Origin: a virus
Virus genome (UHGV): UHGV-0041589
Length of the DNA stretch: 20,735 nucleotides
Direction: 5' to 3' (one strand)
Shown: in pieces, positions 3,203 through 9,417 of the stretch
Numbering within the stretch: the stretch's first letter is position 1
Layout of the letters: the number at the start of each line of letters is the position of its first letter
Made by a program: the position numbers and the translations under genes
The notes under the pieces: generated by a model
The model's database searches: none
What the model saw: the letters and a program-made list of their open reading frames with translations, nothing else
What the model was told of the DNA's origin: nothing

Positions 3203-3523
3203 ATGGCTACTTTGTTAACATCAGGGTTAACTGTTCCGGAGTATTACAAAAATGGTGGAGTGCTCGACTTTGAACTGGATGCTTTAGAGGTGGGCGGGAA
3301 TAGCACTGATTTTGAAAATTACCCTTCACTGGTAAACATTCTTTCTAAAGGTTTCGAGCTTCCTGCTACATCTATGGTTAGCGATCCAAAATTTTTAGCC
3401 CCAATACTAGTTTATGGGGACTTCTGGACAAAACTTCATGCTTATACTTATGCCATGGGCGGCTCCGTTGTATATAAGCAATTACCTTCTGGACGGTATC
3501 ATGCCAGATGTGAGTGGCATTAA
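3203..3523 (+). CDS. Hypothetical protein (106 aa), AT-rich moron antisense to the surrounding operon
   Basis: Strong RBS (AGGAGG) 7-8 nt upstream of ATG 3203. Visibly lower GC than its neighbours. Diverges from the helicase start (3168) and overlaps the C5-MTase stop by 3-4 nt. No recognisable motifs. Confidence 0.6.
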   Translation: MATLLTSGLTVPEYYKNGGVLDFELDALEVGGNSTDFENYPSLVNILSKGFELPATSMVSDPKFLAPILVYGDFWTKLHAYTYAMGGSVVYKQLPSGRYHARCEWH

Positions 3524-4548
3524 ATAAGGTCGTATCCTGCGCATTCCATAAACGAGCGGATGAATGTTGCGGCAGCTGGTGCGACTATCGCGTTGCCGTA
3601 GGCGCGCAGTCGTCCCACTCTGGAGGTAATCCCATTAGCCAACGGGCATGTGCCGGATTCAACTGGCCGCCAGCGACCATCCCGGCAGAGGAGCCAGTCA
3701 GCACCATCCCAGCAGCCGTTAATCGTATTGGGCCGCAGATTCTCGCAGCGCCGCCGAGGGTCGTTCCCCGTTCGGTATGATTGGCCGCTGCGCCCTCGGC
3801 ACGAACTTGGTTGTTGTCGATCGTCGTCACTGTCGGCCATCCCGCTAATCTGGATAGTCCCGCTAAGGTTTCTAGACCGCGTTTTGTCTCCGGCTGTGGG
3901 TTTGTGTTGCAGGTTGGGGTGTACCACCCCGCTAGGTGAGCAAAATTCCGCAGGGAGCTGTGTAGCGTGTTGCCGGACGGTCGACGATCTCCAGACATCT
4001 TCCTCAATGCTATTGAGGCGCTTTCGCCACCGCTGTGATCGCTCGCCGCTGGCGTCGGCCACCCAATACGCTCTATCTCGGATATGCGGGGCACCGACGC
4101 CCGCAGCCGGAAACGGGACAAGCCCAAAGGCGTAGTCCACTGCTTCCACGTCAGTTTGTACAAGATCGAACCAGGCATTGACTCCCGCAACCTGTTCGCC
4201 AAATACCAGCTTAGGGCGTCGCTCGCTGATGAGGTGGAATAGTGCTGGCCATAGGTGCCGCTCGTCATCAAACCCAGCGCCTTTACCAGCCGAGCTGAAA
4301 GGCTGGCACGGGCAACTTCCTGTCCAGACCGGTTTGTTATCCGGCCATCCGGCCAGACGCAGAGCATAAGACCAGACGCCGATCCCGGCGAAGAAATGGC
4401 ACTGTGTGAATCCGCGCAAGTCGTCTGGTGCGACATCTTCGATACTCCTTTCATCAACTTCACCCGGGGCGATATGACCTGCAGCAATAAGGTTACGCAG
4501 CCATTGTGCTGCGTTAGGGTCTATTTCGTTGTAATAGGCTCCCCGCAC
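3520..4548 (-). CDS. DNA (cytosine-5)-methyltransferase
   Basis: Motif I FAGIG, catalytic motif [14 protein letters not shown]-like FGEQV, C-terminal AYGNAIV. Arg-rich central variable region consistent with a target-recognition domain. Confidence 0.85.
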
Positions 4549-4817
4549 AATATCCCCTCCAGATTTTTGCTATCTAATACCACCACGGTAAAGCCCAACG
4601 CGCGCAGCCGTTCGTGCTCGCGTAACTGGTCAGGCCGTGGTGGTTTGCTTGGCGCTTTGCATTCGACAAAGACGATGCGACCGCCGGGTAGCAGGACAAT
4701 GCGATCCGGTACCGAGCGGCGACCGGGTGACACGAACTTAAAGGCGACCCCGCCAGCCTTTTTCACTTCGGCGACGAGGTGCTTTTCGATAAGGCTTTCA
4801 CGTTCGTAGGCCATCAT
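4521..4817 (-). CDS. VRR-NUC domain nuclease
   Basis: Start chosen at the internal ATGATG (4817..4812) because ATG 4817..4815 overlaps the upstream MTase stop TGA 4816..4814; the longer ORF to 4940 would overlap the MTase out of frame. Pattern VAFKFVSPGRRSVPDRIVLLPGGRIVFVECKAP...LREHE matches VRR-NUC. Confidence 0.75.
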   Translation of the reverse strand: MMAYERESLIEKHLVAEVKKAGGVAFKFVSPGRRSVPDRIVLLPGGRIVFVECKAPSKPPRPDQLREHERLRALGFTVVVLDSKNLEGILCGEPITTK

Positions 4818-5296
4818 TCCACACCTTTGACGAAAATAACCCAGTGGGTTTTGTCGGCTTTTCCGGTTCGTTGCCATATGGCCGGCTTCTCGTCGGTCAG
4901 CGCCAAGATATTGCTTACCGGGATCTGCGTTTCGTTCCATTTGAATATGAGTACACCGTGGGGCCGCAATACCCTGAATGCTTCGGCGAAGCCGTCGCGA
5001 AGATCATCGCGCCATGTTTCTTTGTTGAGCCGCCCGTACTTTTTCCTCATCCATGCGTTATCGCCGACGCGCTCGAGGTGCGGCGGATCGAAAACGACGA
5101 CAGGGAAAGTGTTATCGGCAAAGGGAAGGGCGCGGAAATCAGCTATAAGGTCCGGACTTATAACCAACTGGCGACCGTCGCAAAGCTCATGCTGCTCGGC
5201 GCGGATATCACTGAACACGGCGCGCTTGTCCTCCTTGTCGAACCAAAACATACGAGAGCCGCAGCACATGTCAAGAATGGTCTGCTCACAAGTCAT
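4814..5296 (-). CDS. DNA amino-methyltransferase (N6-adenine or N4-cytosine type; DPPH motif)
   Basis: 160 aa; SAM-binding motif I-like LDMCCGS followed by VVVFDPPH (motif IV). Motif order I then IV. Confidence 0.7.
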   Translation of the reverse strand: MTCEQTILDMCCGSRMFWFDKEDKRAVFSDIRAEQHELCDGRQLVISPDLIADFRALPFADNTFPVVVFDPPHLERVGDNAWMRKKYGRLNKETWRDDLRDGFAEAFRVLRPHGVLIFKWNETQIPVSNILALTDEKPAIWQRTGKADKTHWVIFVKGVE

Positions 5297-5507
5297 CGCT
5301 CACCGCCTTACGCTTTTCGCGCATGTTCTGCATCAGACAAAAATCAGACCGGCGTTCGCTCCAGTCCTGATTCAGTTCGTTACGTGACTGGCGGTTAGCC
5401 TTGGCCCAGACCTTCGCTGCCCGGTCATATTCGCCGGACTGCTCAAGGCGCAAGGCCTCCCTCGCAGCCCGGTAATAAAGCGGACTGTCCCGATATTTAA
5501 ATGACAT
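5286..5507 (-). CDS. Small protein (73 aa), possibly ANR-family-like small regulator
   Basis: Start at internal ATG 5507 with RBS AGGAG 8 nt upstream; the longer ORF to 5633 would overlap the upstream gene. AAKVWAKA...NELNQDWSERRSDFC resembles the ANR small-regulator pattern as I recall it; unverified. Confidence 0.5.
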   Translation of the reverse strand: MSFKYRDSPLYYRAAREALRLEQSGEYDRAAKVWAKANRQSRNELNQDWSERRSDFCLMQNMREKRKAVSDDL

Positions 5508-5512
5508 AGGGG

Positions 5513-5716
5513 TTACTCCTGCTTTGCTTCGATTGGGCGGATGCTGCTCAGCACCAGACGAGTGCGGACACCGACAGCACCACCGCGGCGGCCAGTGTCT
5601 TTGTAGTAATACTCTTTTGGGCCAGCCACCCACGTTGTCGCGTTTTGATGCAATTGCACCTGCTTTTCACCGGTGCGGGTAATAACCGTTCCGGTATGCG
5701 TTTTGATTACAGTCAT
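5513..5716 (-). CDS. Hypothetical protein (67 aa)
   Basis: ATG 5 nt after the PolA stop, AAGGA about 9 nt upstream; stop TAA 6 nt before the next start. Tight operon packing supports it being real. Confidence 0.5.
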   Translation of the reverse strand: MTVIKTHTGTVITRTGEKQVQLHQNATTWVAGPKEYYYKDTGRRGGAVGVRTRLVLSSIRPIEAKQE

Positions 5717-5721
5717 AGCGA

Positions 5722-7785
5722 TTAATCCTTACGGTAGTGGTACGCCTCAAAACCGCCAGCGTTCAGTGGGATATCGGGCGCCCATTCGGGGTTAGTGGAG
5801 AGAAGCGCGGAAAGCGCTTTATCGTTGAAATCTTCTGTGTCAGGTGCTTCGGTGATCACCTCGTCGTGTACCGTCAGCACAATGCTGTAACCGGCATCTT
5901 CGATAAGCGGCATGTTTCCGGCCAGAACGTCGCGGGCGGCCGCCTGGGTGACGTTCTCTACCAGCTTTCCGCCGTAGGTTTTGAGTCGTTGCCATTTACG
6001 CGAATAAGAGTTAACACCCATATAGGTGATATTCCCTTTTTCGATAACCGGAGAGGGGTAGCATACAGCGCGTCCGGATGGTAGCTGTATGCGCAGCCAC
6101 GCGCCATCGCGGCGGATTTTAAGATAACCGCAATACAATGTTTTTTGCGGTGTGGCGATTGCAGTGCGGACGGTGCGCTCCAGTTCGTACCAGAAATCGC
6201 AGGTCGCCGGGTGCGCCCTGCGCCACAGGCGCTTGAGCGAGTCACATGCGATGAATACACGCTCGGACAGGCCAAAGGTCGACTTACGTTTAACCGATTC
6301 GTTGTACCAGCTTTTCGCCTCGCGGATAACATCGCGGGGAATGTTTGGCAGTGCGGCGTTCGCCAGCTCGTCGAGATCGAGACCGTAAACCAGAGCAAAA
6401 GTGATGAAAGCCGATACACCACCTCCATAACCCAGACCGAGTTCCATGACTTTACCGATCTGACGCATGTGTTTATCAACATCATCTGGTGCAATATCGA
6501 AAGCTTTTGCATACGCCAGTTTATATAAGTCCGGACCCGTTCCGGCGTCGTACTCTCTGAATGCATTCAGTTTCCATTCTTCTCCCGCCAGCCATGCCAG
6601 CATACGGCCTTCAATGTTCGACAAGTCACTTACCACCAGTTTTTTGCCTGTTGGCGCGATAATGCAGCCACGTAACGCTGAACTGGTTAGTTCCATGATA
6701 TTGTCAAACAGCAGGTCTGCACATCCGGCTTTCAGTGCTTCGATGCCTTCGTCTATTTGTTCCTGTTTTAGTGAAGGGCGGGGAAGGTTCTGGGGCTGGA
6801 ATAGCCGTCCGGCCCAACGACCGGTACGTGACGCCCCGCAGAACTGTAGCGTACCGCGTAAGCGCCCGTCGTGGCTTACGCCTTTCATCAGTGCCTTGTA
6901 TTTACTGGTGCTGGTAGTACTGGCCTGCAGGCGGATAGCCAGCAGTTCTTTCACGGCAGATGGTAAATCGGGGTCGGCTATACGACGTTCCAGAGTACTG
7001 CGTTGCATGTCTGGTAGCTCCACACCGTAGGATTCAACGATGTGCTTAATCAACGCGTCCCGTTGTGTTGCTGCCTGCACTTCGCCATCAGTCATTTCCT
7101 GTGTACGCTTTGCCAGGCGCTTTTGCTCCTGGTCTACCGCTTCGATCGCAGCGCGCGCGAGTTGAATGTCCATGCAGACGCCCCGGTCGTTGATCTGCTG
7201 ATCACGATGCCAGAGCGCCAGTTCTGTCCCCTGATAATTCCACTTCGGCAGACGTTTATAGACTTCGCGCATTGCCTCGATATCCAGTCCGGCGTAAGCA
7301 ACAAAGCGCCGCCATTCTTCCGGGTGGGTTTTGCTGGTGGCCCGGCGCAGTTTGCTGTTTTTCGGGCGTGGCTTACAGAACAGCTGGATCAGCGCTTTAC
7401 CTTCTTTGTCCTTCGCTTTGTCTTGCGGGACGCCTAGTACTTCGCAGAGTTCCCCCAGAGACCCCGGGAGACCGTGCGCCAGCGCCTGCACCATTGTGTC
7501 GCGCCAACGTTCGACTGGCGGTGCCAGGCGCGGCATTGCATAACGCAGGACGGTGCGGTCGAAGTGAGAGTTATGAAAATAAAGCAGGGTTTCAGGGGCT
7601 GCGATTGCTTCGTATAAGCCGTGTGGAATACCACCACCGGCAGTGATATCCCACACGTTTACGGGCTCGTCGTTGATAGCCCATGCGAACAGCATCACTT
7701 CAACGCCTTCGGCATACGCATGGGTACCGTTCGTAATAGGGATTTCGCAATAGGTTTCTAGGTCACCCCATAGTATATTGGACAT
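5722..7785 (-). CDS. Family-A (Pol I-like) DNA polymerase with N-terminal 3'-5' exonuclease domain
   Basis: 687 aa; exo motif LWGDLETY near the N-terminus, motif [17 protein letters not shown], motif C LTVHDEV. Confidence 0.9.
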
Positions 7786-7841
7786 AAAATAACCTTGTGT
7801 GATATATGGTTATGTAGGTGTAAATAAACAAGGAGACGGCG

Positions 7842-8111
7842 GTGTTTAGCTTTGGTATCGGAATACTTTCATTGATAGGTATTATTGCTTTCCCCATTCT
7901 TTATATTTTAGGGAGAATAGTTCGGGCTGGTGGCGCATGGCTCGAACGTGAAGAAGGTCCTAAGGATCGTGTTCTTCCCAAAATTATAATTTTTGCGCTT
8001 ATTGGGTTCTTTCTTGGGTGTTTGGCTCAGCCTGTATGGGACAGCATTTCGGTATGTAGAGACTATGGCAATCCAATAGGGAAATGTCTTTTTAAATTCA
8101 ATGAATTTTAA
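7842..8111 (+). CDS. Small membrane protein (89 aa, two predicted TM helices), AT-rich accessory gene
   Basis: GTG start 5 nt after AGGAGA RBS (7831-7836). Two hydrophobic stretches (about residues 2-24 and 47-65), Cys-containing C-terminal tail. AT-rich codon usage. Opposite strand to the surrounding operon. Confidence 0.6.
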   Translation: MFSFGIGILSLIGIIAFPILYILGRIVRAGGAWLEREEGPKDRVLPKIIIFALIGFFLGCLAQPVWDSISVCRDYGNPIGKCLFKFNEF

Positions 8112-8178
8112 TTTTTAGTATTGCGGTAGGCTGGTTTGGATAACTATTTTCTTAAGCCAGCCTTTGTTATAAGAAATA

Positions 8179-8832
8179 TTAAGCATCTACCCCTTCGTCA
8201 GAAGGGAGGCCGATCATTTCGTTGAGAGTTTCGCGTCGTATAGCTGGCGGAAGCGGAGCAGATGGTGCATCGGCTGGCAGAAGTTCTTTAGCTTCAGGCC
8301 ACTCTTCCAGCAGGCGCTTAACTGTGCGCACTTTACTGAGTGCAGCGCTGACATTCTGTCGAATGTCTGACTCATCGCTCTGTATCTGCTCATAAAGTGT
8401 ATCAAACCCGTAAAACTCTGTAACTAGAGGGTCATTTGCCAGAAGGGTAAATTCCCCCGGCGCGATTTTGTGAATATGGTCTGGTGACCCTGATTCATAT
8501 CCTCGGTAGTTACCGTTGAAATAGACGGTAACCCGAGAACCTGCCAGATTCAGACACATGTAACACTCTTCCCTGATAATGTTATTGGCGGTTTTTAATG
8601 CTTCGGGGAATTTTGATACCAGTGTTTCTATTTTTTTTATATTTTTTAATATTTCAGCTTCTTTCTCTACGCCCCCGATAGCTGCAAGCCGAACACGTTC
8701 GGCCCATTCAACACGAGCAGCTCGTAGTGCTGATTTACGTTTGGGGATACCCGCTTTCTCAAGTGCGTTATTGATGATTTGAGTTTTAAGGTAATTAGTT
8801 AATACGGGCTGTGACATTATTCTTTCCCTCAT
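8179..8832 (-). CDS. Hypothetical protein (about 212-217 aa); start ambiguous (ATG 8832 or ATG 8817)
   Basis: Long ORF with lower GC than the core replication genes; Lys/Glu-rich helical N-terminal half, no recognisable catalytic motif. Both candidate ATGs have a GA-rich SD-like sequence upstream. Confidence 0.55.
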   Translation of the reverse strand: MRERIMSQPVLTNYLKTQIINNALEKAGIPKRKSALRAARVEWAERVRLAAIGGVEKEAEILKNIKKIETLVSKFPEALKTANNIIREECYMCLNLAGSRVTVYFNGNYRGYESGSPDHIHKIAPGEFTLLANDPLVTEFYGFDTLYEQIQSDESDIRQNVSAALSKVRTVKRLLEEWPEAKELLPADAPSAPLPPAIRRETLNEMIGLPSDEGVDA

Positions 8833-8868
8833 GAGATCCCCCAGCACGCAGCTGGGGGATGAATATTT

Positions 8869-9417
8869 TTAAATTAGTGCTTCAGCATCAGCACCTTCGC
8901 TGATATCGTCGAAATCGTCAGCGCTTGCCACTCCGCCGCCAGCGAATGCATCGCCGTCTCGCAGGAACTGGACTCCGCCGAGTGAGGCATTAATGCGTTT
9001 ACCGAAATTATTGTCCTGTGCCCAGATATCGATAACGGCGTTTACATAGCACCCTGCATAGGGACGTCCATCAGCCTGAATTAGTGGCGAACGATCGCGA
9101 TCAAGAACAGCTGGGCGCGCTTTGTTAGCAGCGTTCAGGAAGAAATTGCCGGGAAAGCCTTCATACTCTGCTTTTTCATCACCATCATGCAGGCACAGAT
9201 TGAGTTTTTTCTCCAGCTGGTTATAAATGGACTCCCACTTCTCCCCCCATTTTTCCTTCGCTACCTGCTTCATAGCTTTACGGATTTCTTCCAGTTGTGG
9301 GTGTTTGGGAGACATTAAAAATACTGCGGAGAAACGCGGATCGCCTTCGCCGTTTACAGTTTTAGCTTCAAACAGAGACGGGAAGGCCAGACGAACATTG
9401 TTCAGCTTCAGTTTCAT
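8869..9417 (-). CDS. DUF2815-like protein (putative phage ssDNA-binding protein) with acidic SSB-like C-terminal tail
   Basis: 182 aa; N-terminus MKLKLNNVRLAFPSLFEAK; C-terminus DDFDDISEGADAEALI. AAGGA RBS 9 nt upstream. Stop is 13 nt after the DUF2800 gene. Confidence 0.7.
   Translation of the reverse strand: MKLKLNNVRLAFPSLFEAKTVNGEGDPRFSAVFLMSPKHPQLEEIRKAMKQVAKEKWGEKWESIYNQLEKKLNLCLHDGDEKAEYEGFPGNFFLNAANKARPAVLDRDRSPLIQADGRPYAGCYVNAVIDIWAQDNNFGKRINASLGGVQFLRDGDAFAGGGVASADDFDDISEGADAEALI

Follow-up and report, generated by a model that had tools for sequence, protein, structure and literature searches.

Phages and their satellites are known to carry defense hotspots, such as those of P2 and P4, in which many mutually exclusive cargo genes occupy the space between two conserved genes. 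A moron, as defined for lambdoid phages, is a transcription unit of its own that has been inserted between two genes which related phages carry side by side. Small inner-membrane proteins recur among protective factors: T4 Imm, HK97 gp15 and P22 SieA act in superinfection exclusion, and the immunity proteins of class II microcins and bacteriocins (for example, Cvi of colicin V) are small polytopic inner-membrane proteins. Here we analyze an interval at positions 7786–8868 of virus genome UHGV-0041589, a stretch of 20,735 nt referred to below as the window. The interval separates the genes for DUF2815, a protein that binds single-stranded DNA (SSB), and a family A DNA polymerase (PolA), and holds two convergent genes. 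One, on the minus strand, is nmad5, whose family name stands for ‘nucleotide modification associated domain 5’; the other, on the plus strand, encodes an 89-amino-acid (aa) membrane protein that we call TM89.

We find that an early replication operon contains a hypervariable cargo slot, that the interval is one of its alleles and that the two genes there are independent of each other. The slot resembles the P2 and P4 hotspots in its fixed position and in its association with candidate defense genes (PADLOC candidate PDC-S25 within the slot and PDC-S35 downstream of PolA in phage vB_EcoM-689R2), and it differs from them in lying inside the replication operon and in having two sub-positions. Our overall reading, a cargo hotspot that contains an accessory Nmad5 gene and a moron protecting the lysogen, is one that we regard as roughly an even call.

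A hypervariable slot between the SSB and PolA genes

The window is identical to chromosomal Escherichia coli prophages, for example those of strains F11, BH100 and Ecol_542, integrated beside yfhL. They belong to a family of enterobacterial temperate phages that occurs in 159 of 5,426 complete E. coli genomes (about 3%). While the flanks of the interval are present in 159 genomes, only 57 cover 80% or more of a query sequence that extends across it. Comparison of six slot variants placed the borders precisely, with homology ending exactly at the PolA ATG and resuming a few bases past the SSB stop codon.

We surveyed the slot in IMG/VR with the SSB protein alone as the seed (at least 92% identity), thus avoiding a bias toward Nmad5, and obtained 75 complete sister loci with more than 20 different slot contents. 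Nine loci are empty, with DUF2815 abutting PolA across a gap of 20–30 bp. Nmad5 is the sole occupant in six; it is accompanied by an antisense 229-aa gene in six, by the 89-aa gene in seven and by a NUMOD4-HNH endonuclease in one. Overall, it is present in 20 loci and absent from 55 that carry otherwise the same replication genes. Further occupants comprise an antisense 209-aa protein predicted to have several membrane helices (nine loci), antisense 166–183-aa proteins with two N-terminal membrane helices (about eight), antisense 199–208-aa membrane proteins, in some cases joined by a sense-strand BRO-N gene (about ten), a sense-strand 500-aa SIR2-like protein (four loci and one split copy), lipoproteins with an SPFH domain (three) and a DUF4145 protein (one). 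The slot consists of two sub-positions, with sense-strand cargo beside the SSB gene and antisense cargo beside PolA. An earlier note on this DNA, made from the sequence alone, had described an accessory interval interrupting the replication operon between a PolA start at 7785 and a DUF2815 stop at 8869; both borders are correct, and the empty loci bear out the interruption.

When the occupants were compared to the defense models of PADLOC-DB 2.0, neither of the two slot proteins in the window matched, whereas the SIR2-like alternative (L095:5640–7142; Pfam SIR2_2) corresponded to candidate PDC-S25 (E = 4e-158). The literature searched contained no description of a hotspot between SSB and PolA inside a replication operon and no mention of the related phages or protein accessions. 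A paper on coliphage mEpimmI was set aside because it concerns a different phage group.

The variability extends to the other side of the polymerase gene. Directly downstream of PolA, sister phages encode a TIR-like protein matching PDC-S35 (E = 1e-108; L001:3105–3866, which is phage vB_EcoM-689R2, and L091:3052–3813) at the place filled in the window by small regulators and methyltransferases. In this phage family, cargo varies at this position too.

A perfect 10-bp hairpin next to the SSB stop codon had been taken for one edge of an acquired island. The hairpin exists, but it does not mark an edge, since every relative examined has, just after its SSB stop codon, a GC-rich hairpin with a 5-nt loop, empty slots included and whatever lies downstream. 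Its stems differ among relatives, and in many of them a U-run in the operon direction follows. Judged by this recurrence, the hairpin is a conserved feature of the operon, perhaps an attenuator, a terminator or an RNA-stability element.

TM89 is encoded by a compact antisense gene

The 89-aa gene runs antisense to the operon and has a strong ribosome-binding site (RBS), both as previously noted, and it begins with a GTG codon. At 39.3% GC content overall and 30.0% at third codon positions (GC3), it is poorer in GC than nmad5 (45.9%, GC3 38.5%), DUF2815 (49.2%, GC3 47.0%) and PolA (54.4%, GC3 57.7%). The claim that both genes in the interval are AT-richer than their flanks is, therefore, correct, with a large gap in the case of the 89-aa gene. 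Upstream, a promoter-like site can be read, comprising a −35 element TGGACA (7779–7784) that overlaps the PolA start codon, an 18-nt spacer and an extended −10 element TGaTATATG (7800–7808).

Downstream of the gene, we located the 7-bp inverted repeat AGGCTGG/CCAGCCT that the earlier note had pointed out between the convergent stop codons. As RNA, this segment folds with −20.3 kcal/mol on the plus strand, where extra G-U pairs form, versus −10.6 kcal/mol on the minus strand, and the U-rich tail UUUGUUAU follows it on the plus strand only, the minus strand lacking a U-tract. Because the stronger fold and the U-tract both belong to the plus strand, termination is predicted to be strand specific, and the element could serve as a terminator-like signal for the 89-aa transcript that lets operon transcription pass toward PolA. 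TM89 homologues in Serratia, Undibacterium and locus L064 have hairpin terminators of their own. Compared to morons, the 89-aa gene shares presence or absence at a fixed junction, foreign composition, an RBS of its own together with a predicted terminator, and transcription against its surroundings; it departs from them in that its promoter is only inferred and that it is an old resident of the slot, as discussed below.

TM89 initially resembled an ORFan, as a word-indexed search returned E. coli copies only; a profile search through the word index yielded just 10 proteins. The ORFan status was rejected by an exhaustive HMMER search, which identified homologues in 118 cluster representatives, with E values below 1e-10 for 36. 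Almost all representatives are 80–100 aa long and align end to end. Named sources are Escherichia, Serratia, Pantoea, Polaromonas, Undibacterium and Roseateles. In the alignment, G59 and C72 are invariant and G7, G55, Q63 and C82 nearly so, with the consensus AW..R...PKERV ... GF..GS..QP.WD....C...G.P...C.

Two helices are predicted at residues 8–34 and 44–74, connected by a basic loop (residues 26–47) and followed by a C72-x9-C82 tail. Among 68 family members, the inter-helix loop contains on average 4.65 lysine and arginine residues versus 0.15 in the N-terminus. The C-terminal tail has exactly two cysteines in all 68, with the C-x9-C spacing conserved in 67. The AlphaFold2 (AF2) model is a confident helical hairpin with a predicted local distance difference test (pLDDT) score of 87. 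On the basis of the positive-inside rule and this hairpin model, TM89 is predicted to adopt an N-out/C-out topology with a cytoplasmic basic loop and a periplasmic tail, in which the two cysteines probably form a disulfide loop. TM89 shares with Imm, gp15 and SieA that it is phage encoded, small and equipped with about two transmembrane helices for the inner membrane; it differs in having no detectable PHROG or Pfam similarity to them and in its periplasmic C-x9-C tail, which is specific to this family.

We examined 12 genomic contexts of the family, of which eight are prophages; three short contigs were uninformative. In three diverged phages, represented by the window, Serratia and locus L064, a homologue lies antisense beside PolA, although the polymerases are only 73–76% identical. 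The presence of TM89 at the same junction in such diverged phages indicates long residence in the slot, not recent arrival. In L064, the 85-aa homologue is adjacent to PolA while Nmad5 is encoded 4.4 kb away, just downstream of the repressor. The Serratia prophage remnants (L090–L092, positions 3838–7100) contain a 92-aa homologue with 49% identity on the opposite strand, 54 bp from the PolA start. Nmad5 is absent there, and a broken SSB gene begins 44 bp past the stop codon of the homologue. In these remnants, two of three assemblies have a frameshifted PolA, the SSB gene is split and only the last 83 residues of DUF2800 are left, while the TM89 homologue is intact and identical in all three. 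Such preservation amid decayed neighbors is what one would expect if the gene benefits the host. Other phage-related homologues are located within the early-left operon of an Undibacterium prophage (antisense), in a Pantoea lambdoid prophage between its lysis and terminase genes (antisense as well), between the terminase and portal genes of a lambda-like contig, and next to an integrase and an AbiTii gene in Roseateles-like elements.

Nmad5 is a full-length member of a catalogued family

The earlier note had recognized no motif in either protein, which holds for TM89, with no consistent family match, but not for the larger protein. On Pfam profile PF18757 (Nmad5), its sequence scores 190.9 bits, the cut-off being 27 (E = 3.6e-56), with a match spanning residues 16–215 of the 222-aa open reading frame (ORF) and positions 3–206 of the 206-position profile. 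It also matches phrog_1965 (E = 2.3e-62), and PGAP likewise names the product Nmad5. The 222-aa ORF reported for 8179–8847 exists mechanically from a GTG codon, but the gene almost certainly starts at ATG 8817 and encodes 212 aa, because the RefSeq start and all 38 aligned homologues begin there.

Invariant positions in the alignment (L6, R43, G49, L131, F135, L169, W173, P174, E175, L180, P181, L198, N199, G203 and L204) are mostly hydrophobic or glycine and proline and do not form a catalytic-looking set; the best-conserved stretches are WPEAKELLP and the terminal LNxMIGLP. The AF2 model (pLDDT 86) combines long helices with a small sheet and has a disordered tail. Fold searches with this model returned only generic helical hairpins from the PDB and only other Nmad5 proteins from BFVD, with no enzyme-like neighbor among them. 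The structure prediction suggested in the earlier note was, thus, successful in giving models for both proteins, and less so with regard to function, as BFVD provided no informative match for either and the PDB none for Nmad5.

Nmad5 relatives were detected by tblastn in 153 sequenced phages, both temperate and lytic. In eiAU-183, the gene is located downstream of primase/helicase. As elsewhere in the family, the gene in the window encodes a full-length member in a phage early or replication region beside a family A polymerase. It is distinguished from known cases by the lack of aGPT-Pplase and 5-hmdU kinase and by being dispensable among near-identical sister prophages, the latter because 55 of the 75 do without it. 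Considering fold, conservation pattern and dispensability together, we infer that Nmad5 serves phage DNA metabolism as an accessory or adaptor factor without catalytic activity.

Residues 127–207 of Nmad5, its C-terminal half with the long helix, WPEAKELLP and the LNxMIGLP tail, are found again (44% identity) in a different protein of 207 aa whose gene comes right after that for antiterminator N. Proteins with this half only include L184:2132–2755 (HK542 gp33) and products encoded at about 11.1 kb in Stx2a-converting phages. Sequence comparison thus suggests that the tail region is a transferable module.

Substitutions permitting escape from Tmn have been reported in an ‘nmad5’ gene of Dhillonvirus that is non-essential and toxic when cloned (PMC11846954). 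We give this little weight because homology of that gene to the present one could not be confirmed: no match to the Nmad5 profile occurred in the initial 12 kb of the genome of Dhillonvirus HK578, and the 234-aa HK578 gene adjoining the capsid gene had no Pfam match. Two further candidates were discarded. The ‘NMAD’ defense domain of DefensePredictor is Nmad2 rather than Nmad5, and phage C130_2, for which an Nmad protein was matched structurally, is a Hungariovirus and not a Dhillonvirus.

A protective role for TM89 and competing functions

In the explanation that we favor, the slot allele consists of two unrelated genes. The first, nmad5, would be transcribed with the operon and give rise to a helical, non-enzymatic protein with a disordered tail that ends in the conserved LNxMIGLP. 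The 89-aa gene would be a self-contained, AT-rich antisense unit with a promoter-like site, a strong RBS and a plus-strand terminator. Its product would be made in the lysogen and act at the inner membrane, on its periplasmic face, to protect the cell. Within such a protective role, superinfection exclusion through blocking the DNA entry of incoming phages would be the likeliest mechanism. We rank it first because of the positions of the family among prophage cargo, the AbiTii neighbor, the defense genes found in the slot and the retention of intact copies in decayed prophages.

Several observations weigh against this explanation. The promoter of the 89-aa gene is a putative one read by eye, and a consensus promoter scan did not report the site at 7779–7808, the −10 element of which does not end in T. 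TM89 of the window had no match in Pfam, PHROGs, NCBIfam or PADLOC; among the 68 family members, two matched the unnamed phrog_8574, with no consistent Pfam family and only scattered chance matches. The search of BFVD viral structures with the TM89 model gave nothing better than E = 1.4, a tblastn search of 50,697 sequenced phage genomes detected no relatives, and no sequence or structural similarity to a known exclusion, immunity or defense protein was found. By these sequence searches, the family of 85–95-aa proteins appears new to all libraries searched apart from the one unnamed PHROG. Within E. coli, TM89 was encountered only together with Nmad5 (seven of seven IMG/VR loci and all 32 genomes matching the island end to end), and a functional link between them in this lineage is possible. 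Two more points belong here, the exporter-adjacent homologues and the name of Nmad5, each of which leads to an alternative.

The first alternative is that TM89 is an orphan bacteriocin or microcin immunity protein, acting in lysogenic conversion, whose periplasmic loop neutralizes an exported membrane-targeting toxin. Both non-phage contexts place a distant family member directly after export-related genes. In L178 and L179, the homologue follows by 29 bp a Peptidase_C39 + ABC_membrane + ABC_tran exporter, near which an HlyD-type fusion protein is encoded, and in L177 (3123–7258) it lies 33 bp after a 1,281-aa HemolysinCabind/RTX protein. This adjacency favors toxin immunity over phage exclusion. 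Size, two transmembrane helices and a periplasm-facing tail also resemble class II microcin immunity proteins and, as with Cvi, the setting is the inner membrane. However, the window contains no exporter, toxin or bacteriocin gene, eight of the 12 contexts are prophages without an exporter or toxin partner, the exporter-adjacent support is limited to two non-phage loci, and TM89 has no similarity to any Pfam immunity family. We consider this function unlikely, if plausible enough to keep in view. In L179 (1–2786), the homologue is itself followed by a 104-aa hydrophobic ORF and an H-NS-like gene.

With respect to nmad5, the alternative is a component of a DNA base-modification pathway that acts with the operon methyltransferases and marks replicating phage DNA against restriction. 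The published Pfam and PGAP name, the cassette context in M6-like phages, where Nmad5 is part of a thymidine-hypermodification cassette upstream of PolA (PMC9476957), and the two methyltransferases of the operon point to DNA modification. In the N4-like phage Pollock, moreover, the gene follows thymidylate synthase and precedes a gp42-like exonuclease within the replication module. In Salmonella prophages L031, L035 and L038, homologues of the 160-aa S-adenosylmethionine (SAM) methyltransferase are encoded 0.8–1.5 kb upstream of Nmad5, even where DUF2815 and PolA are missing, and this proximity is possibly a weak link between both genes. On the other hand, the window contains no hypermodification genes, though a C5-cytosine methylase and the small SAM methyltransferase share the operon, and the predicted fold, a helical bundle with a small sheet, and the invariant positions lack enzyme-like features, as described above. 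The 43 IMG/VR loci with Nmad5 and without PolA have mixed neighbors from the lambdoid early and nin regions (N, NinG, lambda P, Rad52, ERF and exonucleases), with no hypermodification enzyme among the 25 most frequent families listed. Among sister prophages, the presence of Nmad5 does not follow that of the methyltransferases, and most of these prophages dispense with it while retaining the same replication genes. A modification role, therefore, seems improbable to about the same degree as the immunity function.

A broader proposal would join exclusion and immunity. TM89 could represent a new and widespread family of disulfide-stapled, periplasm-facing gatekeepers that provide phage exclusion in prophages and toxin immunity beside C39-ABC or RTX genes, with the SSB–PolA junction as an undescribed defense hotspot; masking of a common inner-membrane entry component is a possible mechanism. 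We regard this proposal as speculative and somewhat less probable than either of the two preceding alternatives.

A two-gene module is not supported

The earlier note had interpreted the interval as a horizontally acquired two-gene cargo module, and one way to understand such a module is as a toxin-immunity pair or a two-component abortive-infection or anti-defense pair. Its appeal lies in the AT-richness of both genes, in their convergence upon a shared intergenic hairpin and in the restriction of the 89-aa gene in E. coli to this Nmad5 allele. The distribution data largely refute it. Nmad5 has the orientation and spacing of an operon gene: the order DUF2800-DUF2815-Nmad5-PolA is maintained in Salmonella, Citrobacter, Xenorhabdus and other relatives (48–85% Nmad5 identity), and Nmad5 ends 16–48 bp before PolA in 12 loci. 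It occurs alone, in lytic phages and with other partners. The junction between Nmad5 and PolA elsewhere contains other antisense genes, including those for lipoprotein-like and membrane proteins, and in L003 and L020–L025 the companion is the different antisense 229-aa gene. TM89 homologues, in turn, lack a neighboring Nmad5 in Serratia, L064, Pantoea, Undibacterium and others, and in L027 and L099 Nmad5 is split or frameshifted beside an intact TM89. The two are independent genes. Since each occurs without the other, a toxin-immunity or two-component pair is not supported, and we judge it very improbable. What survives of the original interpretation is the cargo aspect, in the form of a variable slot with candidate defense genes and a compositionally foreign 89-aa gene, but Nmad5 runs with the operon and, on our reading, did not enter the slot as joint cargo with TM89.

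Equally remote is the option that the 89-aa product damages membranes, be it as a holin- or antiholin-like modulator of lysis or as a small toxin, or that the ORF is unexpressed: it is indeed a small two-helix membrane protein and the Pantoea homologue lies about 2.7 kb from a lysis cassette, but the window has its own cassette of lambda-family holin and GH24 lysozyme elsewhere, the predicted C-out topology with a disulfide loop is unlike the cytoplasmic charged tails of holins, intact copies in decayed prophages argue for host benefit, and conservation across 118 clusters argues against a spurious ORF.

Organization of the operon and surrounding features

The early operon is encoded on the minus strand. 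In the direction of transcription, it begins with a 300-aa PHROG-6784 protein, DUF2800 (a PD-(D/E)XK nuclease) and DUF2815, an Enc34-type SSB (PMC5686142), followed by the interval and PolA. After PolA come small regulators and the two methyltransferases, of which the 160-aa SAM enzyme is encoded at 4814–5296, and then VRR-NUC and SNF2 helicase genes. Past the operon, the window encodes a LexA-like repressor and a VapE primase. Coordinates of the slot features are listed in Table 1.

Table 1 Features of the SSB–PolA slot and its borders, with post-SSB hairpins of relatives
Feature	Position	Strand	Details	Basis
Family A DNA polymerase (PolA)	5722–7785	−	Left flank of slot	Pfam DNA_pol_A
Promoter-like site for the 89-aa gene	7779–7808	+		Reading of sequence by eye
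Shine-Dalgarno AAGGAG	7830–7835	+	6 nt ahead of the GTG start of the 89-aa gene	Sequence
89-aa inner-membrane protein (TM89), predicted	7842–8111	+	GTG start; antisense to operon	ORF; RefSeq WP_000490741.1
Inverted repeat, terminator-like	8128–8163	+	AGGCTGG (8128) / CCAGCCT (8157–8163), then TTTGTTAT	Positions, folds
nmad5	8179–8817	−	212 aa from ATG 8817; mechanical ORF (222 aa) reaches GTG 8847	PF18757
Shine-Dalgarno-like GAGGGAAAG	8822–8830	−	Ahead of nmad5 ATG 8817	Sequence
Hairpin after SSB stop codon	8836–8860		10-bp stem, 5-nt loop, ΔG −20.8	T-run on plus strand only
DUF2815, Enc34-type SSB	8869–9417	−	Right flank of slot	Pfam PF10991, E = 2.4e-44
Post-SSB hairpin in relatives	L007:5940–6010; L013:5942–6012; L145:5537–5600		Also in L016, L018, L028, L047 and L147	

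A second AT-rich antisense gene is present in the same operon, between the SNF2 helicase and cytosine methylase genes. It occupies 3203–3523 on the plus strand and encodes 106 aa (41.7% GC, GC3 34.6%). The product matches phrog_28127 and had no match in Pfam or PADLOC. The location is probably another moron slot.

Implications

Nmad5 had already been catalogued and anti-phage cargo hotspots of prophages are known; the hotspot in this replication operon had no counterpart in the literature searched, and the TM89 family is undescribed in the libraries searched. For Nmad5, the results bear on annotation, as the name implies an enzyme while fold, conservation and dispensability suggest a non-catalytic accessory protein. 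The alternative occupants of the slot constitute a ready list of candidate defense and exclusion genes. The 89-aa family, undescribed in curated family databases, offers a concrete and cheaply testable candidate for lysogen protection.

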